Assembly: GCA_964443975.1 (NCBI GenBank)
Contig: CAYUFS010000023.1
Location: 1,953-65,952, forward strand
Length of the DNA: 64,000 nucleotides
DNA from: an uncultured Myxococcales bacterium
Lineage (GTDB): Bacteria > Myxococcota_A > Polyangia > Fen-1088
Reading direction: 5' to 3'
Part shown: positions 4,514 through 14,312 of the stretch, in pieces
How the letters are laid out: every line of letters begins with the position of its first letter
Position numbering within the stretch: position 1 is the stretch's first letter
Position numbers and translations under genes: made by a program
Notes under the pieces: model-generated
Told to the model about the DNA's origin: nothing
The model's database searches: none
Seen by the model: the letters and a program-made list of their open reading frames with translations, nothing else

Positions 4514-4981
4514 TTGGCTATGGAAGCGGTGCAGACATTCGCCATTCAGCCCCACGAAGGGACCAGCGGAGATTCGCGCCTGCTCGCCGAAGGAACCGCG
4601 ATCGGGCGCGTCGAGGGCCTGGTGCTCGAGGCGCAGTTTCGTTGTGGTCCCGGATACCTCGTCGTCACGTCGGACGGCAATCCATTCGAGGAGGGTCTTC
4701 ACTTCTACCTTCTTGACACCTCGTACGCTGTGCTCGACGACGTGTCGCTGGGCCGCATGTACCACGCTGGAATGTATCGCAACGTGATCGTCGGGCCGGA
4801 TCGCGACGCACTGGAGTTCGAGTTCTTCGGCAATGACCGCTGGCGGCTCTCGATCGCCAGCCAGCCACGCCGGACCTGGTTTCGGCGGCCATTCTCCGCG
4901 GTGACGCGGACCAGGAAGTGGCTGGCGCCGCACCGCCTCGATCTGCGGAAGGTCGAGCACCAGAGCCGCGCGGCACCTTGA
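4514..4981 (+). CDS. Hypothetical protein
   Basis: 155-aa ORF with balanced, protein-like composition (F/Y/E/D present) and no recognisable motif. The competing minus-strand ORF is Arg-rich. Confidence 0.45.
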   Translation: MAMEAVQTFAIQPHEGTSGDSRLLAEGTAIGRVEGLVLEAQFRCGPGYLVVTSDGNPFEEGLHFYLLDTSYAVLDDVSLGRMYHAGMYRNVIVGPDRDALEFEFFGNDRWRLSIASQPRRTWFRRPFSAVTRTRKWLAPHRLDLRKVEHQSRAAP

Positions 4982-5138: not shown

Positions 5139-5531
5139 ATGAACTCAGGTGCTGTAGCCAAAGCCCCGGTCGTCGAGCCCCAGCAGCGAGCCGCCGAACG
5201 ACACAACGTCGAGGTCTCGGTCGATCTGGAGAGCGATTCCAATTTCTACACGGGCCTCACCCAGAACATCAGCGCGGGCGGGCTGTTCATCGCCACCCAC
5301 CAGATCAAGCGGGTGGGGGATCGCGTCCATTTGAAGTTCAACTTGCCGGGATCGTCGCGGGCGATCGAATGCGATACGGAGGTGCGCTGGATCCGCGAGA
5401 ACTCGTCGCTCCACCGCACGGACGGCGCCTCCGGAATGGGCGTCCGATTCATCGACATGTCCCCTGCCGACGCCGAGGCGATCCAGGCCTTCATCGAGAG
5501 CCGCGAGTCCCTGTTCTACGACGACGAATGA
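5139..5531 (+). CDS. PilZ-domain protein, a putative c-di-GMP receptor
   Basis: RxxxR...D-S-G-G pattern (RAAERHNVEVSVDLESDSNFYTGLTQNISAGGLFIAT) typical of PilZ. It is 34 nt upstream of the export-gate genes. Confidence 0.7.
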   Translation: MNSGAVAKAPVVEPQQRAAERHNVEVSVDLESDSNFYTGLTQNISAGGLFIATHQIKRVGDRVHLKFNLPGSSRAIECDTEVRWIRENSSLHRTDGASGMGVRFIDMSPADAEAIQAFIESRESLFYDDE

Positions 5532-5564: not shown

Positions 5565-5969
5565 TTGACTCGACGCGGGCTCCTGACGGATAACGCCGTG
5601 ATGGACAGCACGGGTTCGTTACCGGGGGTGGGGGGCTCGCTCGCCGTGTCGCTGGTGTCGCTGGGGGTCGTCTGCCTGATCGCGTACCTGGCGCTCAGGT
5701 TTCTCGGCCGGCGCGGCCTCGGCCGGCCGAATGGACCGATCAAGATCAGGGCGCGCTGCCCGCTCGAGCCGCGGCGGTGCCTGTACGTCGTCGAGACGGC
5801 CGGTCGCTGCTTCCTCATCGGCGTGGGTGACGGCCCCATGACCATGCTCGCCGAGCTGGGCCCGGCCGAGGTCCAGGCATCCCTGGCGGCCCCGCTCGAG
5901 CCGGGCGCGAAGTTCAGCGAGGTGCTCACGCGCGTACTCGGTCGCGGCGCGCGGTCGGAGCGGACATGA
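5565..5969 (+). CDS. FliO-like small membrane protein
   Basis: Single N-terminal TM helix (VSLVSLGVVCLIAYLALRF) followed by a FliO-like C-terminal region (LYVVETAGRCFLIGVGDGPMTMLAEL). Its stop overlaps the SctR/FliP start (ATGA). The start may instead be the internal Met at 5601. Confidence 0.5.
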   Translation: MTRRGLLTDNAVMDSTGSLPGVGGSLAVSLVSLGVVCLIAYLALRFLGRRGLGRPNGPIKIRARCPLEPRRCLYVVETAGRCFLIGVGDGPMTMLAELGPAEVQASLAAPLEPGAKFSEVLTRVLGRGARSERT

Positions 5970-6742
5970 GGCGGCCCGCGTTCGCGGCCGCGCTGACGGG
6001 CGGCTTGCTGGCCCCCCTGTGCGCGCACGCCGCCCGGACGAGCGCCGCTGCCGCCGCGACCGCTGGCGATGGGCTCACGGCGCGGCCGTTGCTGCTGTTC
6101 ATCGTGATGAGCGGGGTGGCGCTGGTGCCGTTCGCGCTGCTGATGACCACCTGCTTCGTCAAGGTGGCGGTGGTGCTGTCCATCCTGCGCAGCGCGATCG
6201 GCGTTCCCCAGGTCCCACCGACGCAGGTCATCACCGGGCTGGCGCTGATCCTCACCGCCTACGTGATGGCCCCCACCGCCGAGCGGACCTACGACGCCGT
6301 GAAGCCGGTCATGTCGCTTGGCGCGGGCGCCGATCTCGCCAGCGCCGCGACGGTGGATGCCCTTCAGCAAGCCGGTGCGCGCGCCAGCGAGCCCTTGCGC
6401 GCGTTCCTGTTGAAGCAGGCAGACCCGCGCGATCGCGCGACGTTTCATGGCCTCGCGCTGCGCATGCGGACGCCTGACCAGCGCGCGACGATCTCGGATC
6501 GCGATCTGATGGTGATCATTCCCGCGTTCGTGACCTCGGAGCTGAAGCGCGCATTCGAGATCGGGTTCTTGCTCTTCATTCCATTCCTCGTGCTCGACCT
6601 GGTCATCTCGAACCTCCTGCTGGCGCTCGGGATGCACATGCTGGCGCCGACGACGGTGTCGCTGCCGTTCAAGCTGCTGCTCTTCGTGCTCGCCGACGGG
6701 TGGCACCTGGTGGCCCGCGGGCTGGTCGAGAGCTACCTGTGA
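5966..6742 (+). CDS. sctR: Type III secretion / flagellar export apparatus protein, SctR/FliP family
   Basis: FALLMTTCFVKVAVVLSILRSAIGVPQVPPTQVITGLALILT is the FliP/YscR family signature, and the 258-aa length fits. Confidence 0.9.
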   Translation: MRRPAFAAALTGGLLAPLCAHAARTSAAAAATAGDGLTARPLLLFIVMSGVALVPFALLMTTCFVKVAVVLSILRSAIGVPQVPPTQVITGLALILTAYVMAPTAERTYDAVKPVMSLGAGADLASAATVDALQQAGARASEPLRAFLLKQADPRDRATFHGLALRMRTPDQRATISDRDLMVIIPAFVTSELKRAFEIGFLLFIPFLVLDLVISNLLLALGMHMLAPTTVSLPFKLLLFVLADGWHLVARGLVESYL

Positions 6743-6746
6743 CGTC

Positions 6747-7028
6747 ATGACCACGGTCGCCACGTCGTCCGAGCTGGTCCTGCGCGCCATCCACGAGGGG
6801 CTGTTACTGGCGCTGCTGGTGTCGGGGCCGCCGCTGCTGGCCAGCCTGCTGGTAGGCTTCGTCGTCGGGATCGTGCAGGCAGCGACGCAGATCCAGGATC
6901 AAGCGCTGGCGTTCGTCCCGAAGCTCGTGGTCGTGGTGGTGACCTTGCTCTCCGTCGGCCCCGTGCTGGGCACGCAGCTGGTCCGGTTCACGCAGGCGCT
7001 GTTGCTCGTCTTCCCTTCCATCAGGTGA
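6747..7028 (+). CDS. sctS: Type III secretion / flagellar export apparatus protein, SctS/FliQ family
   Basis: 93-aa two-TM protein (LLLALLVSGPPLLASLLVGFVVGIVQAATQIQDQALAFVPKL) matching FliQ/YscS. It lies 5 nt after sctR. Confidence 0.85.
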   Translation: MTTVATSSELVLRAIHEGLLLALLVSGPPLLASLLVGFVVGIVQAATQIQDQALAFVPKLVVVVVTLLSVGPVLGTQLVRFTQALLLVFPSIR

Positions 7029-7086: not shown

Positions 7087-7899
7087 GTGATCTCGCCGGG
7101 AGGGGACCGGGAGCGTTGGCTCCTCGCGGTGGGCCTTGGCGCCGCGCGGACGGTGCCGCTTTGCTGGGCCGTCCCCGCGGTCGGCGGGCCGCGCGTCGCG
7201 CCCGAGGTGCGGGCGGGGCTGGGGATCGTGTTGGCCGTCCTCTGCTTGCCGGCGTTGCTCCCCGCGGTGGACACGTCCGTGAGCGCCGCGCCTGGCCCCG
7301 TCGGCTGGACGCTCGTGCTCGCGCGCGAGCTCCTCGTCGGCCTGACCGTCGGCCTCTGCGTTGGGGCGGGCTTTCGCGCCGCCGAGGCGGCGGGGCGGCT
7401 CGCCGATCTCGCCCGCGGCGCCAACCTGGCCGAGGTGTTGTCGCCGATGTCGGACGAGCGCACCAGTCCAACCGGCGATCTCTATCTGTTCGTCGCGGTG
7501 ATCGTGTTCCTCGAGCTGGGTGGGTTGCGAGTGTTCGCGCAAGCGCTCGGGCGGAGCTACGAGGCGGTGCCCGTGGGCGCGTCCTCCGCCCTGTTTCCGG
7601 GCGGCCTGCGGGCCGCCGTGGCGCTAGTCACGGCGGCGGTGGCCAAGCTCATGGAGGCGGCGCTCGGGCTGGCGGCGCCCGTGCTGGTCGCAGCGTTGCT
7701 GGCCGACGCGACGCTGGGCCTGGTGGCGCGCGCCGCACCCCAAATTCCAATCTATTTCGCCGCCATGCCAGCGAAGGCGCTGCTCGGACTCGGCGTGTCG
7801 TTGGTTGGCGTGGGCGCCATCGAGGCCGTGTTCGCCGGGGGCTTTCACGCCTGGGCCGCGATGTTCGACCAGGCCGTCGCCGCATGGCGGCCGAGATAG
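7087..7899 (+). CDS. sctT: Type III secretion / flagellar export apparatus protein, SctT/FliR family
   Basis: 270-aa polytopic membrane protein in the conserved R-S-T order. It probably starts at a GTG. The hydrophobic profile and length match FliR/YscT. Confidence 0.8.
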   Translation: MISPGGDRERWLLAVGLGAARTVPLCWAVPAVGGPRVAPEVRAGLGIVLAVLCLPALLPAVDTSVSAAPGPVGWTLVLARELLVGLTVGLCVGAGFRAAEAAGRLADLARGANLAEVLSPMSDERTSPTGDLYLFVAVIVFLELGGLRVFAQALGRSYEAVPVGASSALFPGGLRAAVALVTAAVAKLMEAALGLAAPVLVAALLADATLGLVARAAPQIPIYFAAMPAKALLGLGVSLVGVGAIEAVFAGGFHAWAAMFDQAVAAWRPR

Positions 7900-7978
7900 G
7901 CAGCGAGATAACGCCGGTGTTCTTCGACGCCCCGAACGGCGATCTTCAGGCCCGGGCGGCTCCTGTCGAAGGACAGCT

Positions 7979-9029
7979 CATGCCGATGGGGTGGCGCAGG
8001 CCCGCTGCTGGGCTGAGAGTCGGGGTGGCGATCGTCTTGATCGCCGGGGTGGTGGCGCGCGCGCGCGGCGCTTCGGCGGCGGGGGCGGCGACCGACCCCG
8101 ACGCCTTCGACGATCCCAAGCTCGCGCGCGAGCCGGCGCCGTTTGCCCCGTCCGCCCCCGCCGCGAAGGCGCCGGAGCCAACGGTCGCGCCAGGGCCCGT
8201 CCCGACGCCTGCTCCGCCGAAGGTCGCCCCTCCTGCGTCCGCGCCGGTCCAGGCGCTCTCGCCGTCGCCTCCCGCCCCGTTGCCTGCGCCGCCGCCGCCG
8301 CCGAAGCTCGCCACGCCGGCGCCAGGTCCCGTCGCCGTGCCAGCGTCGGGTGTCGCGCCGCCGCCGCCTGTCTCGGCGTCTCCGGTGGACAGACCGGCCG
8401 CGCCGTCGCCGCAACCCCAACCGCTTCCGGCCGCGCCGCCGCGGCCGTCGCCGGCCGCAAGCGGTTCCCCGTCAGCCGACCTCAGCGTGAAGGCGCCCCC
8501 TCCCGCAGAGCCAGCTCCCACCGGAGCCTGGCCTTACGCGCCTCGGCTGAAGCTCAGCTATCGACGGTTCTCGTTTTCACGTATGCCCGCGACGGGGACC
8601 TCGTCCACCGCGGCGCCCGTCCCCGAGTCGTTCGAGAGCTTCGGCCTCGATTTCTATCCCATGTCCTGGTACCTGCGCGTCGGTTTCTCGTCGCAGTTCG
8701 GCTGGGAGAGCGGACAGTTTCAACGAACCGGCGATTACTTTCTGGCCGAGTCGGCGTCCGCGGGATTTCAGATTCCAGGCCGATTCACGCCGTTCGCGGA
8801 GGCGTTCGCAGGCGCGGGCTACATGCGCCGCTTCCAGAACGGCGCCACGTCGCCCTCCGCGTACTGGCAGACGGGCGTGGACGCGGGGGTCGAGATCTAT
8901 TTCGCGAAACGCGCCTACGGCAGCGTCGCTCTCGGGTATCTCCACCCGGGTAACCTGTTCCTGCAACAGAAGAACCTGTCGTCGGTGAACGCCGATACGT
9001 GGTCCCTGAAGGTCGGCATCGGCATCTGA
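7979..9029 (+). CDS. Hypothetical membrane-anchored proline-rich protein with a beta-rich C-terminal domain
   Basis: ATG at 7979 gives an N-terminal TM helix (MPMGWRRPAAGLRVGVAIVLIAGVVA), then about 170 aa of Pro/Ala repeats (PAPPKVAPPASAP...), then a C-terminal ~170-aa domain of alternating hydrophobic residues (FGLDFYPMSWYLRVGFSSQFGW...SLKVGIGI). The part of ORF 7116..9029 upstream of 7979 is Arg-rich and presumably not translated. Confidence 0.55.
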
Positions 9030-9107: not shown

Positions 9108-10241
9108 TTGGCGCGGTCGGGCGCTGAACCCACCGAACGACCCACGCCGCGGCGGTTGCTGAAGGCGCGGCAGGGGGGACACGTGCCCATCAGCCGCGAT
9201 CTCTCCTCGGCGATTGTCTTCCTGGCGCTCGGTGGACTGCTGTGGGGTGGGGCGGCGACCGGGGTGGGCCGCCTGCTGGGCTTGTTCCGGGCGACGTTCG
9301 CCGCGCCCTTCGGGTCCTCGATGGCGACGGCGGCGCTGGCCGCGCGCGCGTTCGATGTCGCGATGGCGCTGGTGCTTCCTCCGGTCGTCGTGGCGTGCGC
9401 CGGCGCGCTGCTGGTAGGGGCGCTGCAAACGCGGGGGTTGTTTGCCTGGCGGGCCGTCGCGACCGACGTGACGCGTTTGTCGCCGGCCGTCGGAATGGCA
9501 CGCGTCTTCAGCCCGAAGACGGCCGGCGACATCGCGCAGGGCGTGGTGAAGGTCTTCGTCGTGGCGGCGGCGGCGGTCGTGGGTGTCGAAGCATTGCTGC
9601 GCGGGCTACCGGCTCTGGTCGGGGCGGCGCCCGGCGCGGTGCTGGCCGTGCTCGGTCTCGAGGCGCGGGATCTGGCGATCCGCGGGGCCATGGCGTTCCT
9701 GGCGCTGGGCATTCTCGATGGGGTGCTCGGGCACCGGCGGCACCGCCGGTCGTTGCTGATGACTCGCGAGGAGGTGAAGCGGGACTTGAAGGAGGCCGAG
9801 GGCGACCTGCGCCACAAAGCCGAGCGCCAGCGTCTGCACCGGCAGCTCGGCGAGCGACGACTGAACGAGGATGTCCGAAGCGCGACCGCTGTCGTGGTGA
9901 ACCCCGAGCACATCGCCGTGGCCATCCGCTACGACCGTGATGGGGATCAGGCGCCGGTGGTGCTGGCGAAGGGCGAGCGGCTGCTCGCCGAACGTATCAA
10001 GCAGGTCGCCCGCGAGGCAGGCGTGCCGATCTATCGCGACGTCGCGCTGGCGCGCGCGCTTCACCAGCTCGACGAGGGTGAGGAAATCCCCCAGCCCCTT
10101 TACGAGTCCGTCGCCGAGCTGCTGCGCATGCTGTGGGAGCTCGAGCGCAAGCCGGCGACTTCACCCGCCGTCGCGGTCACCGCGACGGTCACTGATCGAC
10201 CGGACGGCCCGCCCCCGGCAAGCGGCGGACGACGCGTCTGA
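9108..10241 (+). CDS. sctU: Type III secretion / flagellar export switch protein, SctU/FlhB family
   Basis: FlhB-like N-terminus (EPTERPTPRRLLKARQGGHVPISRDLSSAIVFLA) and an autocleavage site NPEHIAVAIRY (the NPTH-type motif). Probable TTG start. Confidence 0.88.
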   Translation: MARSGAEPTERPTPRRLLKARQGGHVPISRDLSSAIVFLALGGLLWGGAATGVGRLLGLFRATFAAPFGSSMATAALAARAFDVAMALVLPPVVVACAGALLVGALQTRGLFAWRAVATDVTRLSPAVGMARVFSPKTAGDIAQGVVKVFVVAAAAVVGVEALLRGLPALVGAAPGAVLAVLGLEARDLAIRGAMAFLALGILDGVLGHRRHRRSLLMTREEVKRDLKEAEGDLRHKAERQRLHRQLGERRLNEDVRSATAVVVNPEHIAVAIRYDRDGDQAPVVLAKGERLLAERIKQVAREAGVPIYRDVALARALHQLDEGEEIPQPLYESVAELLRMLWELERKPATSPAVAVTATVTDRPDGPPPASGGRRV

Positions 10242-10271: not shown

Positions 10272-11243
10272 GTGCGTCGACGACAAGCGAGGCTGGAAAA
10301 CCATCACGGGTTCGAGGGCCGGGTCGTCGCCTTCATCCGTCTGGGGCGTCCGCAGTTCCTGGTGGGCGGATTCCTGCTCTACGGGCTCGGCGCGGCGGTC
10401 GCTTGCGCTGCCGTGGCGGGGGTGACGCTCGACGCGCGAACGTACCTGCTCGGACAGGCGGGCATCACCGCCATCCAGCTCATGACCCACTACGCGAACG
10501 AATACTTCGATCTCGGCGCCGATCGAGCCAACCTCACGCCGACCGAATGGTCGGGTGGCAGCCGCGTCCTCGTCTCGGGGGCCCTGTCGCCTCAGGTGGC
10601 CCTGCGCGCGGCGCAGGTGCTGAGGGCTCTCGGGGTCCTGCTCGCCGCGGCCGTATTCTTCGCGGGCGGCCGCGGCGGAAGGGTGGCCGCCGGCGCGCTG
10701 GTCGGCGCGCTGATCCTTGCGTGGGCATACAGCGCGCCCCCGCTTCGGCTGCATTCGCGGGGACTCGGCGAGGTCACGACGGCGATCGTCGTGACGGGCC
10801 TGACGCCGCTCGTCGGATTCGTGCTGCAGTCGGGAGGTCTGGCCGGAGCAGGCGGTCTCGCGCGGGCGTTGCTGCCGCTCGCCGGATTGCAGCTGGCGAT
10901 GTTGCTGGCCATCGAATTTCCAGACGCCGCGGGCGATGCGGCGGCGGGCAAACGAACGCTGGTGGTGAAGCTTGGCGCACGCGTCGCCGCCGCCGTGTAC
11001 CGCGCGCTTCTGGTCGCGATCTATGGCGCGATCCCCCTGCTCCTCATTGGCGGGCTGCCGGGCGGCGCGGCGGGCGCGGCCGCGTCGCTCGCCCCTGTGG
11101 CCGCGTGGCAATTCTGGGTGCTCGGCCGCGGCGCCTGGGGTGATGCGCGGCAATGGGAAGGCATGGCGTTCCGGGCCGTGGCGATGCTGATCGGCACCAC
11201 CGCAGCCGAGCTGGCCGCGTTCCTCTGGATCATTTGGCGGTAG
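10272..11243 (+). CDS. UbiA-family aromatic prenyltransferase
   Basis: Polytopic membrane protein with an Asp-rich motif NEYFDLGADRAN (NDxxDxxxD-like) and a second Asp-rich region (FPDAAGDAAAG). The 323-aa length fits. GTG start 28 nt after sctU. Confidence 0.8.
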   Translation: MRRRQARLENHHGFEGRVVAFIRLGRPQFLVGGFLLYGLGAAVACAAVAGVTLDARTYLLGQAGITAIQLMTHYANEYFDLGADRANLTPTEWSGGSRVLVSGALSPQVALRAAQVLRALGVLLAAAVFFAGGRGGRVAAGALVGALILAWAYSAPPLRLHSRGLGEVTTAIVVTGLTPLVGFVLQSGGLAGAGGLARALLPLAGLQLAMLLAIEFPDAAGDAAAGKRTLVVKLGARVAAAVYRALLVAIYGAIPLLLIGGLPGGAAGAAASLAPVAAWQFWVLGRGAWGDARQWEGMAFRAVAMLIGTTAAELAAFLWIIWR

Positions 11244-11348
11244 GCGCCGACAGCCTCCCAGGCCGCCGGTTCGACGATGACGCGTTTCGAGGACGAAACG
11301 GGCGCCGGGTGATTGGAGCGTGACTTTCATTGAGCCTGGGTCCCCGAC

Positions 11349-12467
11349 GTGTCAGGTTGTCCCCGGGAGGACCTATTGCCTGTCATCACCAGCGTCGCCA
11401 CCGCGGTCCCGAGGTTCTCGGCGACGCAGGACGAGACCAAGGCGGCGTTCGGACCACTGTTCGGGCTCGAGGGCCGTCGATTCGAAGCGACGATGTCGCT
11501 GTTCGACAACGCGGAGGTGGGCACACGCTACAGCGTGTTGCCGCTCTCCGAGCTGGTCCTGACCCGCTCCCTCACGGAGACGATGCGCCTCTATGCGGAC
11601 CACGTGCGCCGCCTCGGCGAGAGCGTGGCCCGCGCCTGTCTCGCCCAGGTGGCGATGTCGCCGGAGGCGCTCGACCTGATCGTCTCGGTGTCTTGCACGG
11701 GCGTCATGATCCCCTCGGTCGACGCGTTCCTGATGGATGCCCTCGGGACGCGCCGGGACGTGGTGAGGCTGCCCATCACCGAGCTCGGGTGCGTGGGCGG
11801 CGCCGCCTCGGTGGCGCGGGCCAACGACTTCTTGCGGGCGCACCCCGACCGGCGCGCGCTGGTCCTGGCCATCGAGCTGCCCAGCCTCAGCCTGCAACGG
11901 CGCGACGTCTCCATGGACAACCTGGTCGCGTCCGCCTTGTTCGGCGACGGCGTCGCGGCCGTGCTGATGGTCGGTGACGCCACGCCCGAGGCGATCGCCG
12001 CGCAGGCGGGCGGGTCGGCGCGCACCGGGGCAATCCGGATCGTCGATACCCTGTGCCACACCCGGCCGAGCAGCACCGATGCCCTGGGGTTCGATCTACA
12101 CGAGGACGGCTTTCATGCGGTGCTGGCGAAGCAGGTCGCCGGCATCGTGCGCGCCGATCTGTACGCGCTCGTGCAGCGGTTGACCGAGCGGGCGAACATC
12201 GACCCTGGCAAGCTCGGCGCGTTCGTCCTGCATCCCGGTGGGAAGAAGATTCTCGGCGCGGCCGAGGAGGCGCTTGGCCTGACGCGCGAACAGACCCAAC
12301 CATCGTGGGATGTCCTGCGCGCGTATGGCAACCAGTCGAGCGCCTCGGTGCTGTTCGTGCTCGACCGCTGGATGACCGCACGTCGGCCGGCGCGCGGTAC
12401 GCAGGGCGTGATGGCGGCGTTCGGGCCGGGGCTGACCACGGAGCTTTCGCTGCTCGAATGGCTATGA
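11349..12467 (+). CDS. Type III polyketide synthase, chalcone/stilbene synthase superfamily (RppA/SrsA-like)
   Basis: Catalytic Cys context SVSCTGVMIPS, plus GCVGG, HPGGKKIL, YGNQSSASVLFVL and FGPGLT. It aligns well by eye with bacterial RppA/Srs-type enzymes. An alternative TTG start at 11376 is preceded by GGGAGG. Confidence 0.9.
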   Translation: MSGCPREDLLPVITSVATAVPRFSATQDETKAAFGPLFGLEGRRFEATMSLFDNAEVGTRYSVLPLSELVLTRSLTETMRLYADHVRRLGESVARACLAQVAMSPEALDLIVSVSCTGVMIPSVDAFLMDALGTRRDVVRLPITELGCVGGAASVARANDFLRAHPDRRALVLAIELPSLSLQRRDVSMDNLVASALFGDGVAAVLMVGDATPEAIAAQAGGSARTGAIRIVDTLCHTRPSSTDALGFDLHEDGFHAVLAKQVAGIVRADLYALVQRLTERANIDPGKLGAFVLHPGGKKILGAAEEALGLTREQTQPSWDVLRAYGNQSSASVLFVLDRWMTARRPARGTQGVMAAFGPGLTTELSLLEWL

Positions 12468-13072
12468 CACCCGAAGTGTGGTGGTTCGTGGGGTTGCTCT
12501 GCGCGGTGGGCGTGGGGCGGCTCGTCGAGATGCGTGTGTCGCGCCGACATCAGAAGCGTCTGGCAGCGGTGGGACTCAATCGCGCCCGCGAGCCGGCGTT
12601 CGGGCTGATGGTGTTGCTCCACGCGGGGGTGCTGGTGGGGGTGGCGCTAGAGGTCGTCATCGCGCGCCGCCCGTTGCTCCCGTGGCTGGCCCTGCCATCG
12701 CTGGCCGCGTTCGTGCTGGCGAATATGTTGCGGCTCTGGGTCATCCGCACCCTGGCGGAGCACTGGAACGTGAATGTCGTCAACTCCCTCGCGCTGGGGA
12801 TCGTGACCTCCGGGCCTTACCGGTGGGTGCGCCACCCCAACTACGTGGCTGTGTTCGTCGAGCTCGTGGCGCTGCCCCTCGTGCACACGGCGTACGTCAC
12901 GGCGCTCTTCGGGGCGGCTCTGCACCTCGTGGTCCTCGGTCGCCGGCTGGCGGTCGAGGACGGCATCTTGCTCGCCGATCCGGGTTACCGGGCGGCGATG
13001 GCGGGGAAGCCCCGGTTTCTGCCGCAGCTCGGGGAGCTGTTGTCGTCGTCGGCGCGGGTGCCACCCGCATGA
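12458..13072 (+). CDS. Isoprenylcysteine carboxyl methyltransferase (ICMT)-family membrane methyltransferase
   Basis: GPYRWVRHPNY motif with a C-terminal E...L in a multi-TM protein. The ATG overlaps the PKS stop by 10 nt, indicating translational coupling. The ORF-track entry 12053..13072 is an upstream extension. Confidence 0.8.
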   Translation: MAMTPEVWWFVGLLCAVGVGRLVEMRVSRRHQKRLAAVGLNRAREPAFGLMVLLHAGVLVGVALEVVIARRPLLPWLALPSLAAFVLANMLRLWVIRTLAEHWNVNVVNSLALGIVTSGPYRWVRHPNYVAVFVELVALPLVHTAYVTALFGAALHLVVLGRRLAVEDGILLADPGYRAAMAGKPRFLPQLGELLSSSARVPPA

Positions 13073-14220
13073 ACGCGGATGTGTTGATCGCGGGCGGGGG
13101 ACCGGCCGGGTCGGCGCTCGCGATCCTCGCGGGGCGGGCGGGCCACTCGGTCTCGCTGTTCGACGGCGCGCGGTTTCCGCGCGAGAAGCCTTGCGGAGAA
13201 GGCCTGATGCCCTCCGGGGTCGGCGCGCTCGAGCGCCTCGGGCTCGCGGCGGCCACCGGAGGCGTGCCAATCGGCGGCATTCGCTACCACGGATTTGGCC
13301 TCACCGCGGAGACGGCGTTTCCGGCTCCCCGCCCGGGGCGTGGCCGCGTTGGTCCAGCCGCGCACGGTCTCGGTCAGCGACGGATCGTCTTCGACGACGC
13401 GCTGTGGGCGGCGGCGCGGGCGACGCCGAATGTGCGCGTGTTCGAGGACGCCGCGGTGGAAGGGGTCGTGTGTCGGGCGGGCCGGGCCGTCGGGCTGCGG
13501 GTCGCGGGGCAGACTGTCTCGGGTGGACTGATGGTGGGCGCGGACGGCGCGCGGTCGGTGGTGCGGCGCGCGGTGGGGTTGGAAGGGCCGCGCACCGAAC
13601 GTCCCCGCTGGGGCCTGCGCATGCACTTCCGGCTGGCCGCCGATCGGCCGGCGCCCAATTTCGTCGAGGTGTTCGTCGGTGACGGCCACGAGCTCTACCT
13701 GACGCCTTTGCCCGCGGGCGAGGTGCTGGTCGCGGTGCTGAGCGCGCACGGGCACCACGAGGATCGCCCGGCGCAGACCTTGCGGGCGTTCATCGACCGG
13801 CACCCGGCGCTCGTCGAGCGCCTGCGCGGGGCCGAGGCGGTGTCGGCGCCCCGGGGCCGCTCGCCGCTCGCCTCGACGGCGCGCGCGGGCGTTGCCCCGG
13901 GGGTGGTGCTGCTCGGCGACGCGGCCGGGTTCACCGATCCGCTCACCGGCGGCGGGATGGCGCAGGCGTTGCTGTCCGCCGAGCTGCTCGCTCCCTACCT
14001 GGGGCGGGCGCTCGGGGAGCGCGACGACGAATGGTTGTGGCGCTTCGATCGGCGGCGGCGCGCGATGCTGCGCGACTATGTCTGGCTCACGCGGTTGATG
14101 GTGCGCGCGGCCGGGCGTCCGCTGCTGGCGCGCGGCACTCTGAAGGCGATGCGGGCCTCCCCGGCGCTGATGCGGCACCTGGTCGGCGTGGCGGCGGGCC
14201 TGCGCCGCATCATCTTCTAA
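13069..14220 (+). CDS. FAD-dependent oxidoreductase, a flavin monooxygenase / geranylgeranyl-reductase-like fold
   Basis: N-terminal dinucleotide fold MNADVLIAGGGPAGSALAILAGRAGHSVSLFD, plus GADGARSVVRR and GDAAGFTDPLTGGGM motifs. ATGA overlap with the methyltransferase stop. Confidence 0.8.
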   Translation: MNADVLIAGGGPAGSALAILAGRAGHSVSLFDGARFPREKPCGEGLMPSGVGALERLGLAAATGGVPIGGIRYHGFGLTAETAFPAPRPGRGRVGPAAHGLGQRRIVFDDALWAAARATPNVRVFEDAAVEGVVCRAGRAVGLRVAGQTVSGGLMVGADGARSVVRRAVGLEGPRTERPRWGLRMHFRLAADRPAPNFVEVFVGDGHELYLTPLPAGEVLVAVLSAHGHHEDRPAQTLRAFIDRHPALVERLRGAEAVSAPRGRSPLASTARAGVAPGVVLLGDAAGFTDPLTGGGMAQALLSAELLAPYLGRALGERDDEWLWRFDRRRRAMLRDYVWLTRLMVRAAGRPLLARGTLKAMRASPALMRHLVGVAAGLRRIIF

Positions 14221-14312
14221 ACTCGCCCGCGCCAACGCGACTTCTGAACCTGATCGCCAACGCGTTGGCGTGCGGCGCTGGGGGCCGTACAATCGCTCCC
14301 GTGAGGACAAAG

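Follow-up and report, generated by a model that had tools for sequence, protein, structure and literature searches.

It is still an open matter how myxobacterial type III systems that lack secretin and needle get their cargo past the periplasm (PMC3459982, PMC12075869). The window analyzed here, a 64-kb stretch of DNA, contains an export-gate gene set in which one additional gene, designated X, interrupts the otherwise contiguous sctRSTU genes. The question raised by this locus is what a protein encoded at that position could contribute to the gate. Its predicted fold and its gene order make X a candidate for the outer-membrane partner so far missing from a type III core devoid of secretin and needle. 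All genes and sequence elements given below with a coordinate range are located on the + strand, and their coordinates refer to the window.

The export-gate module

The gate module adjoins rpoA-rplQ and comprises only genes for PilZ, FliO, SctRSTU and X. It opens with a PilZ-domain protein (5139..5531; PF07238, E 1e-18, with RxxxR and NxSxxG motifs), which was also found 5' of FliO in 21 of the fetched loci, followed by a FliO-like export-gate assembly protein (5565..5969; PF04347, E 4e-12) that scored 50 bits against TIGR03500, under the cut-off of this model. The gate components are SctR/FliP (5966..6742; PF00813, E 3e-65), SctS/FliQ (6747..7028; PF01313, E 5e-25), SctT/FliR (7087..7899; PF01311, E 2e-45) and SctU/FlhB (9108..10241; PF01312, E 4e-85). 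SctR passed the NCBIfam yscR cut-off (221.7 vs 208.6) and failed that of fliP (201.7 vs 217.45), which assigns it to the injectisome type. In SctU, the sequence NPEH (9900-9911) replaces NPTH, and the true start of this protein lies possibly about 25 codons further downstream, an identical 352-aa protein (P0284) beginning later. No terminator-like site was detected between the genes of the module, the single one being located upstream of it at 4622, and promoter-like sites were not found.

A scan of the larger ORFs in the 64-kb window found no further type III secretion parts, and genes for SctV/FlhA, SctN/FliI, SctJ, SctQ and a secretin were found neither there nor, by precomputed Pfam lists, within 10 kb of gene X in the related loci. 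Segments of Salmonella FlhA and FliI, used as tblastn queries without a positive control, gave no match either in the window or in 31 loci. As it stands, the gate module itself looks incomplete.

Coding evidence for gene X

Gene X (7980..9029, stop codon included) is flanked by sctT (7087-7899) and sctU (9108-10241) and codes for a 349-aa precursor. Its preferred start is the ATG at 7980, which has a Shine-Dalgarno-like GAAGGA (7968..7973, read from the sequence) 6 nt before it, and the nearest homologues open with MP(K/Q)GW(Q/R)R. In a preliminary description of this DNA the gene had been given 350 aa from position 7979, and its existence is confirmed with this slight correction. A start at 7884, corresponding to the 381-aa protein P0001 of the gene caller, was rejected because the 32 residues that it adds lack conservation and would leave the signal peptide buried.

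The codon-position GC of the whole gene (0.69/0.65/0.82) is that of a coding sequence and resembles that of the adjoining genes; the values for the segment encoding the C-terminal domain were 0.56/0.55/0.81. In comparisons with four orthologues dN/dS was 0.11-0.21 for the barrel described below, and in comparisons with orthologues it was 0.33-0.71 for the linker. The open reading frame that ends at 9029 extends 5' to 7116, and its Arg-rich upstream part had been suspected of not being translated; this is supported by the GC3 of the extension 7116-7883, which was 0.54 in the frame of gene X vs 0.89 in the overlapping sctT frame, so that the extension is considered non-coding in the former. Neither significant tandem-repeat arrays nor Rfam matches were detected in the gene X region, and the linker contains no notable repeats. 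Judged from these coding signals, together with the homologues and the synteny, gene X is a real, translated gene under selection.

The C-terminal domain of X is a predicted outer-membrane beta-barrel

A beta-rich C-terminal domain ending in SLKVGIGI had been noticed before, and it was located at aa 189-349 (8544..9026). The AF2 model of this domain (pLDDT 87.8, pTM 0.82) contains eight strands forming a closed antiparallel barrel, which was recovered again in the model of the full-length protein. A Foldseek search of the PDB with the domain model returned outer-membrane proteins only (OpcA with 1e-6, NspA, OprF-N, OmpA, OmpW, Ail, OmpX and PagL), the top-ranked small barrels having a probability of 1.0, with TM values of 0.67/0.73 to NspA and 9-17% sequence identity between X and the solved barrels. 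The C-terminal domain of about 160 aa is therewith predicted, with high confidence, to be a small outer-membrane beta-barrel of the OmpX/NspA/OmpA-N type. Because the model matches outer-membrane proteins only, X would be anchored in the outer membrane, and because a barrel of this kind has its N- and C-terminus on the periplasmic side, its N-terminal part would be periplasmic.

Sequence models gave sub-threshold signals in the homologues, with OMP_b-brl PF13505 in 9/39 (best E 6.5e-4, in a scan that gave E-values without a curated cut-off), PagL in 7/39 and weak matches to the autotransporter model PF03797 in 2/39. Protein X itself had no match in a Pfam and NCBIfam scan, including OmpA_C (PF00691) and TonB_C (PF03544) in Pfam, and nothing is located C-terminal to the barrel. 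A profile search of PDB sequences gave chance-level matches only (E 0.05-0.08), and no significant match to a named Sct or Fli homologue was found in Pfam, NCBIfam or PDB sequences. Of the folds that had been named for comparison with this domain (OmpA, TonB C-terminal and secretin pilot), only OmpA was matched, by its N-terminal barrel; a TonB C-terminal, OmpA C-terminal or pilotin fold does not fit. The C-terminus follows a family pattern ...K-x-G-x-G-[ILFY], the close family having I or L as last residue and many remote homologues F or Y, as in classic outer-membrane proteins.

Three other functions were considered for the barrel and rejected. A PagL/PagP-type enzyme is discarded because the homologues seen carry either His or Arg at position 322 and so have no invariant catalytic His; a channel or secretin substitute, because an eight-stranded barrel is too small and has no pore; and an autotransporter, because there are eight strands instead of 12 and an unstructured linker instead of a folded passenger.

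Signal peptide, linker and tip motif

At the N-terminus of X, a basic n-region (RR, R13) precedes a hydrophobic core of 13 residues (aa 14-26), after which comes A-S-A. This segment had been described as a transmembrane helix serving as anchor. However, since the core has just 13 residues and is followed by A-S-A, and the homologues have classic A-x-A signals, it is most probably a Sec signal peptide that spans aa 1-33 (7980..8078) and is cleaved after A31-S32-A33, and no membrane anchor, an assignment made by inspection of the sequence and of homologue alignments. In these alignments the N-termini of the homologues are typical Sec signals with ARA|A or AHA|A ends, located immediately before the conserved motif described below. 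A Tat signal was rejected because the RR pair is not kept in homologues. Cysteine is absent from the whole protein, and there is no lipobox.

Shortly after the predicted cleavage site, the motif FDDPKLAR (aa 43-50, 8106..8129) is found, with the family consensus [F/I]DDPK[L/M]AR and with D44, D45, P46, K47 and R50 invariant in an alignment of 41 full-length homologues. In remote homologues (25-35% identity) the motif, or a variant such as DDPAFAR or DEPGI, occurs once or twice, and no second copy was found elsewhere in the 64-kb window. In the full-length monomer model of X the motif is unstructured and of low confidence, and the tool output predicted no packing or docking of it on the barrel of the same protein.

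The motif is followed by a Pro/Ala-rich linker (aa 51-188, 8130..8543), predicted to be periplasmic, that extends to the first strand and contains 38% Pro and 23% Ala. The PAPP-type spacer of about 170 aa that had been proposed does exist, with a shorter length of 138 aa. It is coil in the full-length model, its sequence is not conserved, and its length ranges from 66 to 252 aa across the 46 homologues measured, the shortest linker reaching about 20 nm when extended.

Family distribution and conserved gene order

Homologues of X were found in 57 clusters by protein search and in 129 by profile search, and X defines a family of about 130-150 sequence clusters, every one labelled hypothetical, for which there is no database model. 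Searches with X, with a broad-family profile and with SctU retrieved no cultured or named relatives, only hypothetical proteins from MAGs and metagenomes, and the X family was found only in uncultured Polyangia/Myxococcales MAGs. The order PilZ-FliO-SctR-S-T-X-SctU was observed in the window and in 24/24 fetched loci containing both SctT and SctU (from 17 of 22 GTDB species genomes and from 7 metagenome contigs), so that the conservation of X at this position, which the preliminary description had left to be checked, is borne out; the placement persists with X homologues of just 34-36% identity. Near-complete MAG contigs bearing the locus are CAVZEF010000006.1 (2.36 Mb), CAVZYM010000005.1 (2.99 Mb) and CAVZVU010000001.1 (1.84 Mb). 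In one lineage (L031, L032) an X-like gene lies between a Ser/Thr kinase gene and galU on a contig without gate genes, which indicates that the barrel family can occur away from the gate.

In sister lineages, the same interval between sctT and sctU contains two companion genes, coding for a lipoprotein (Y) upstream of X and a secreted protein (Z) downstream of it. Gene Y overlaps the start of X by 4 nt in several lineages, and an in-frame Y-X fusion occurs in one contig. Both Y and Z are absent from the lineage of the window.

Proposed role of X and alternative explanations

The interpretation towards which we lean, with somewhat better than even confidence, is that X is an outer-membrane anchor or tether that reaches, by means of a docking tip, a secretin-less and needle-less export gate. 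X would be exported by the Sec pathway with removal of its signal peptide, its C-terminal 160 residues or so would form a closed eight-stranded barrel within the outer membrane, and the N-terminal Pro/Ala stretch of about 138 aa would hang into the periplasm as a flexible tether with FDDPKLAR at its free end. With this motif X could dock to a partner in the periplasm or the inner membrane, the likeliest candidate being the periplasmic face of the SctR/S/T-SctU (FliPQR-FlhB) gate or a factor attached to it. In this way X, acting as anchor or tether and forming no pore, would physically couple to the outer membrane a gate that has no secretin, needle or rod genes nearby, and in sister lineages the same role is apparently split among X, the translationally coupled lipoprotein Y and the secreted protein Z. 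While the synteny was observed directly and the fold is that of the model, we infer the docking partner, and the tie between X and the gate is read from gene order alone. A spacer with a set geometry would not be expected to vary fourfold in length, as this linker does, which counts against the interpretation, as do the X-like gene away from the gate, the incomplete look of the module and the lack of Y and Z in the window lineage. The preliminary description had also suggested an adaptor spanning the periplasm and specific to this gate module, and this part finds support, the linker being long enough and the placement between sctT and sctU being found in all loci with both flanks; the alternative role as pilot that had been offered with it is dropped (see below).

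A bolder version, which we regard as possible but improbable, is that X is the outer-membrane half of an unrecognized trans-envelope machine of uncultured Polyangia, derived from a type III system and shared in sister lineages with Y and Z. In this machine a small barrel, joined by Y in sister lineages and tethered flexibly to a FliPQR-FlhB-type gate, would take the place of the secretin and the rod or needle, with the invariant DDPKLAR tip plugging into the periplasmic face of the gate or into a connector. If this were true, type III gates would have a third structural means of reaching the outer membrane, in addition to flagellar L/P rings and secretins.

[quoted passage not shown] Attachment could be covalent, via the mature N-terminal Ala or via Lys47 (Lpp is attached to peptidoglycan through a Lys), or non-covalent, via the acidic motif. 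A beta-barrel with a periplasmic N-terminal extension is what such a tether would look like, the X-like gene of L031 and L032 has no gate genes with it, and the predicted mature N-terminus of the homologues is Ala, frequently Ala-Asp, which resembles the N-terminal Ala/Gly linkage reported for beta-barrel outer-membrane proteins (PMC12274547). However, the strict placement between sctT and sctU across deep divergence is hard to put down to accident, the conserved element is the internal 8-residue motif and not the extreme N-terminus, the Lys of this motif is changed to Ala or Gly in remote family members, and a linker of 66-252 aa far exceeds the distance from the outer membrane to peptidoglycan.

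It is rather unlikely that X serves chiefly at the cell surface, as an Ail/OpcA/OmpX-type receptor or adhesin, with the long strands 5-6 protruding from the membrane and binding an external ligand, such as the surface of prey or kin cells, and the tail relaying to the gate or localizing the protein there. The adhesins OpcA, NspA and Ail are among the best fold matches, strands 5-7 have 18-21 residues each and are thus longer than a membrane span, and GYMRR...WQxGxD, the block with the strongest conservation among close family members, would lie in the distal half of hairpin 5-6 if the usual topology of outer-membrane proteins applies. Nevertheless, this block is not kept in the wider family, in which conserved positions (YPxS and GxQxPxRxTPF) gather at the turns predicted to face the periplasm, and the barrel topology was deduced from strand order, by which, and not in three dimensions, the conserved positions were placed.

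Very improbable, and already largely refuted, is the TonB-like architecture of the preliminary description, with X as an inner-membrane-anchored periplasm spanner whose C-terminal domain touches the outer membrane or pilots a secretin: X does have a hydrophobic segment at its N-terminus and a spacer rich in Pro, but a 13-residue core followed by A-x-A is as in cleaved signal peptides, the C-terminal domain is modelled as a closed eight-stranded outer-membrane barrel and not as a TonB_C, OmpA_C or pilotin fold, which reverses the polarity and leaves the free end toward the inner membrane, and X has neither a lipobox nor a secretin gene nearby.

The interpretation of X as a gate tether thus concerns a strongly selected protein, predicted to be in the outer membrane, that is encoded amid otherwise contiguous sctRSTU genes across a whole lineage, and it makes X a testable candidate for the envelope-spanning link; the DDPK[L/M]AR peptide is directly usable as bait. 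If the link to the gate were not real, X would be an ordinary small outer-membrane protein with an unusual tail, and the TonB-like architecture would still be dropped.

Comparison with known systems

X has in common with the small eight-stranded outer-membrane proteins (NspA, OmpX, Ail, OmpA-N, OprF-N, OmpW and PagL) the fold class and size, a Sec signal, which in X is predicted, and a hydrophobic C-terminal strand. Unlike X, none of these proteins has a Pro-rich N-terminal tail of 66-252 aa with a conserved tip motif or is encoded within a type III gate operon, and the close X family ends in I/L instead of an aromatic residue. OmpA also combines an eight-stranded outer-membrane barrel, a Pro-rich hinge and a periplasmic binding element, but in X the order is reversed, with the barrel at the C-terminus, and the putative binding element is an 8-residue motif, whereas that of OmpA is the folded OmpA_C. 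TonB shares with X a Pro-rich periplasm-spanning spacer that joins a membrane-embedded end to a binding end, with opposite polarity, X being anchored by the predicted outer-membrane barrel, with an N-terminal free end and no TonB_C.

Beta-barrel proteins of Brucella and Coxiella have an N-terminal Ala/Gly covalently linked to peptidoglycan, as stated in PMC12274547, which cites Sandoz 2021 and Godessart 2021. Brucella Omp25/Omp2b and Coxiella BbpA resemble X as outer-membrane barrels whose periplasmic N-terminus could reach the cell wall, but their N-terminal extensions are short and contain no internal conserved motif. In proteins of this class an L,D-transpeptidase joins the mature N-terminal Ala/Gly to mDAP, and the Ala predicted at the mature N-terminus of X homologues is compatible with such a bond. 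The secretin pilotins MxiM, YscW and InvH have an acylated lipobox Cys and a cognate secretin, whereas X has no Cys and no lipobox, and neither the scanned ORFs of the window nor the 10 kb around gene X in the related loci yielded a secretin gene, which speaks against a secretin pilot.

Myxobacterial gene sets derived from type III systems and lacking secretin, needle and translocon have been described, namely the 'Myxo' NF-T3SS and the needleless T3SS* of M. xanthus (PMC3459982, PMC12075869, PMC10849154), and the non-flagellar T3SS operons of Myxococcota include FliO (PMC12248157). The X module resembles them in having FliO and no secretin or needle, and its SctR scores as injectisome type. 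In contrast, the Myxo loci are reported from Cystobacterineae only and contain the ATPase, SctJ and SctI, the X module is found in uncultured Polyangia, and the cited descriptions of the Myxo systems mention no outer-membrane beta-barrel component.

The Glt gliding machine of Myxococcus xanthus, which crosses the envelope, has an outer-membrane platform without secretin, formed by the small beta-barrels GltA/B/H, the lipoprotein GltK and the periplasmic protein GltC (PMC11761067, PMC4488436), and the N-terminal periplasmic segments of GltA/GltB, disordered alone, were modelled as docking on the periplasmic connector GltC (PMC11761067). The partner of Glt is the Agl motor, whereas that proposed for X is a type III export gate, and the tail of X is much longer and Pro-rich. 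In layout, the arrangement of Glt is mirrored by the cassette of the sister lineages, with its lipoprotein Y, barrel X and periplasmic protein Z.

Locus and coding evidence of gene X

The window has a GC content of about 70%, and a ribosomal-protein/rpoA/rplQ block precedes an export gate module with all its genes on the + strand, encoding a PilZ protein (5139-5531), a FliO-like protein (5565-5969), SctR/FliP (5966-6742), SctS/FliQ (6747-7028), SctT/FliR (7087-7899), X (7980-9029, 349 aa) and SctU/FlhB (9108-10241). The gene of 350 aa claimed between sctT and sctU in the preliminary description was confirmed, with its start one base off. The ATG at 7980 is preceded by GAAGGA 6 nt upstream, and the closest homologues begin at the same residues. 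The start at ATG 7884 chosen by the gene caller (381-aa version P0001) was rejected because it adds 32 residues without conservation. X is a real gene under selection, with a GC3 of 0.82 in its frame from 7980 on, a GC content by codon position of 0.56/0.55/0.81 in the C-terminal domain and pairwise dN/dS values against four orthologues of 0.11-0.21 (C-domain) and 0.33-0.71 (linker). The 5' part of the ORF-track entry 7116-9029, already suspected to be untranslated, is a GC-content artefact, with a GC3 of 0.54 for 7116-7883 versus 0.89 in the overlapping sctT frame.

The PilZ-domain gene that opens the module, located 5' of FliO in 21 fetched loci, has intact RxxxR and NxSxxG c-di-GMP-binding motifs, which suggests that the gate may be under c-di-GMP control. 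The autocleavage motif of SctU (9900-9911) is NPEH, the canonical form being NPTH; homologous loci have NPDH (6), NPEH (3) or NPTH (2).

Family distribution and gene order

The X protein retrieved 57 clusters at 90% identity, a profile search 150 representatives at 50% identity (34 scoring below 1e-30) and a broader profile 129 clusters. No Pfam domain and no name beyond 'hypothetical protein' was found in these clusters, and X is a new unannotated protein family inside a known fold class. All sources were metagenomes or MAGs, labeled Polyangia, Myxococcales, Deltaproteobacteria, Proteobacteria or Pseudomonadota, and the 22 carriers detected by scanning one genome per GTDB species were all MAGs. 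Conservation at related loci, proposed earlier as a check, was complete: X lies between SctT and SctU in all 24 fetched loci holding both genes (17 GTDB species genomes and 7 metagenome contigs), and homologues with 34-36% identity (L027, L029) still sit between Bac_export_1 and Bac_export_2. X is strictly syntenic within the gate operon, the order being rpoA-rplQ-PilZ-FliO-SctR-SctS-SctT-X-SctU...GalU-PriA where both flanks are present. Across the window and all 33 fetched loci, the module is always flanked by the rpoA-rplQ end of the ribosomal protein cluster on one side and by galU-priA on the other. X-like barrels with 26-33% identity are encoded in L031 (4543-5424) and L032 (568-1329), after a Ser/Thr kinase gene in both and before galU in L031; no T3SS gate genes were found on these two contigs.

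Many sister lineages have further envelope genes in the sctT-sctU interval. Y, a lipoprotein of about 190 aa that carries a YHLxYxxPPW motif besides its lipobox, is encoded directly 5' of X, the two genes overlapping by 4 nt; Z, a secreted protein of about 250 aa, is encoded 3' of X (L003, 9441-10004 and 10894-11658; also L004, L010-L025, L027, L029 and L033). Both lack Pfam matches and are absent from the window, and in L029 Y and X are fused in frame in one ORF of 465 aa. Among L001-L026, the X linker has 113-169 aa in loci without Y (except L026, with 54) versus 61-111 aa in loci with Y, a split that tracks one clade and may reflect phylogenetic inertia.

Other genes vary around the module. 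Between sctU and galU the window (10272-14220) encodes a UbiA prenyltransferase, a type III polyketide synthase, an ICMT-like methyltransferase and an FAD oxidoreductase, a set that resembles an srsABC-type phenolic-lipid operon; it is limited to the clade of the window (L001, L005), and in L003 and others without it galU directly follows sctU. In L009 X is separated from sctU by a 3.8-kb insertion (10615-14225), which codes for a Cys-rich protein and for one of 720 aa that bears two CxxCH haem motifs. The remote lineage L027 (6218-7318, 9852-10811) also has a PEGA-domain protein in the T-U interval and, 3' of sctU, a small protein with faint TPR matches that gives the impression of a T3SS chaperone.

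Architecture of protein X

The last ~160 aa of X show 49-77% identity across the close family. AlphaFold2, run with a 39-sequence alignment, predicted an all-beta domain of eight strands (pLDDT 87.8, pTM 0.82), again confident in the full-length model. The fold comparison suggested earlier, against OmpA, TonB-CTD and secretin-pilot folds, was carried out with Foldseek against the PDB: every significant match was a beta-barrel protein, nearly all being natural outer-membrane barrels (OpcA, NspA with TM 0.67/0.73, OprF and OmpA N-domains, OmpW, Ail, OmpX and PagL). Homologues scanned one by one gave weak Pfam matches to OMP_b-brl (9/39) and PagL (7/39), and the C-terminal residue of remote relatives is often F or Y, classic for OMPs. 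The models show that X has an outer-membrane-barrel fold. Even-stranded outer-membrane barrels have both termini on the periplasmic side, so X would be anchored in the outer membrane with its linker and motif hanging into the periplasm; this tethered architecture is very probable.

The N-terminal hydrophobic segment of aligned homologues has the form of a Sec signal peptide (for example MMRASAFLLILASWSAVARA/ATP... and ...LLSAPWAHA/AAAEES...), and that of X, with a 13-residue core followed by A31-S32-A33, is from its sequence probably cleaved as such. A lipoprotein was discarded because the protein has no cysteine, and a Tat signal is unlikely because RR varies among homologues. A few residues past the predicted cleavage site, [F/I]DDPK[L/M]AR is the sole conserved element of the N-terminal half; D44, D45, P46, K47 and R50 are invariant in the full-length sequences (41/41), with DDPGIAR and DDPAFAR as variants in the X-like barrels of L031 and L032, respectively. 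It is followed by a Pro/Ala-rich linker, unconserved in sequence and variable in length (138 aa in the window; minimum 66, median about 98 and maximum 252 aa in 46 homologues). The full-length model gave a pLDDT of ~40-50 and no secondary structure for the motif region, and its output showed no sign of the motif packing on the barrel. The tail is long, unstructured and Pro-rich with a conserved motif at its tip, and is presumably periplasmic.

Proposed role and alternative explanations

X would act as an outer-membrane anchor and tether for the export gate, with no channel role, its tip motif being a putative docking peptide and a gate component the candidate partner. On balance we favor a functional tie of X to the gate; docking of the tip motif on the gate is proposed tentatively. 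The 66-aa minimum linker measures ~20 nm when extended, and therefore every measured family member could bridge most of the periplasm. Synteny between T and U and linker length sustain the previous idea of a module-specific protein able to span the periplasm; the polarity and domain identity it assumed were wrong.

A generic outer membrane-peptidoglycan tether, which could be covalently bound via the N-terminal Ala or via Lys47, is unlikely. Brucella and Coxiella barrels are covalently attached to peptidoglycan via an N-terminal Ala (PMC12274547), and the predicted mature N-termini (Ala or Ala-Asp) and the gate-less X-like gene of L031 would fit, but the operon position, the very long linker and the internal motif, in which the Lys is sometimes replaced, are left unexplained. 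An Ail/OpcA-like surface adhesin, in keeping with the Foldseek matches and the long strands, is improbable: wide-family conservation concentrates at the predicted periplasmic turns (YPxS, GxQxPxRxTPF), as mapped by strand order. By the same mapping, GYMRR...WQxGxD, a block conserved in the close family, lies distally in hairpin 5-6. The TonB-like or pilot protein first envisaged is very improbable, since the predicted signal peptide and outer-membrane barrel imply the opposite polarity and a different domain, X has no lipobox, and no secretin was found in the ORFs and related loci scanned.

Comparison with known systems

Neither the larger ORFs in the 64 kb of the window nor the stretches within 10 kb in related loci (precomputed Pfam lists, tblastn check) yielded SctV/FlhA, an ATPase, SctJ/FliF, SctQ/FliN, a rod, a needle or a secretin. 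Conservation of the intact gate genes extends across the lineage (SctR identity 51-83%), and SctR clears the NCBIfam injectisome (yscR) cut-off and misses that of fliP. FliO is known in Myxococcota non-flagellar systems (PMC12248157).

The genomic setting of X is unprecedented, and probably its functional setting too; X gives a specific entry point for asking how type III cores that lack a secretin are connected with the outer membrane. The closest working analogy is the Myxococcus Glt machine, whose outer platform consists of the OM barrels GltA/B/H and the lipoprotein GltK, the N-terminal periplasmic segments of the barrels being disordered alone and modelled as docking on the connector GltC (PMC11761067, PMC4488436); X is proposed in the role of the Glt barrels. 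Secretin-less and needle-less T3SS-like systems are known in Myxococcus and relatives, reported from Cystobacterineae only and including ATPase, SctJ and SctI, with no mention of an outer-membrane barrel in these accounts (PMC3459982, PMC12075869, PMC10849154). Compared with them, the Polyangia module is smaller and occupies a different genomic place.
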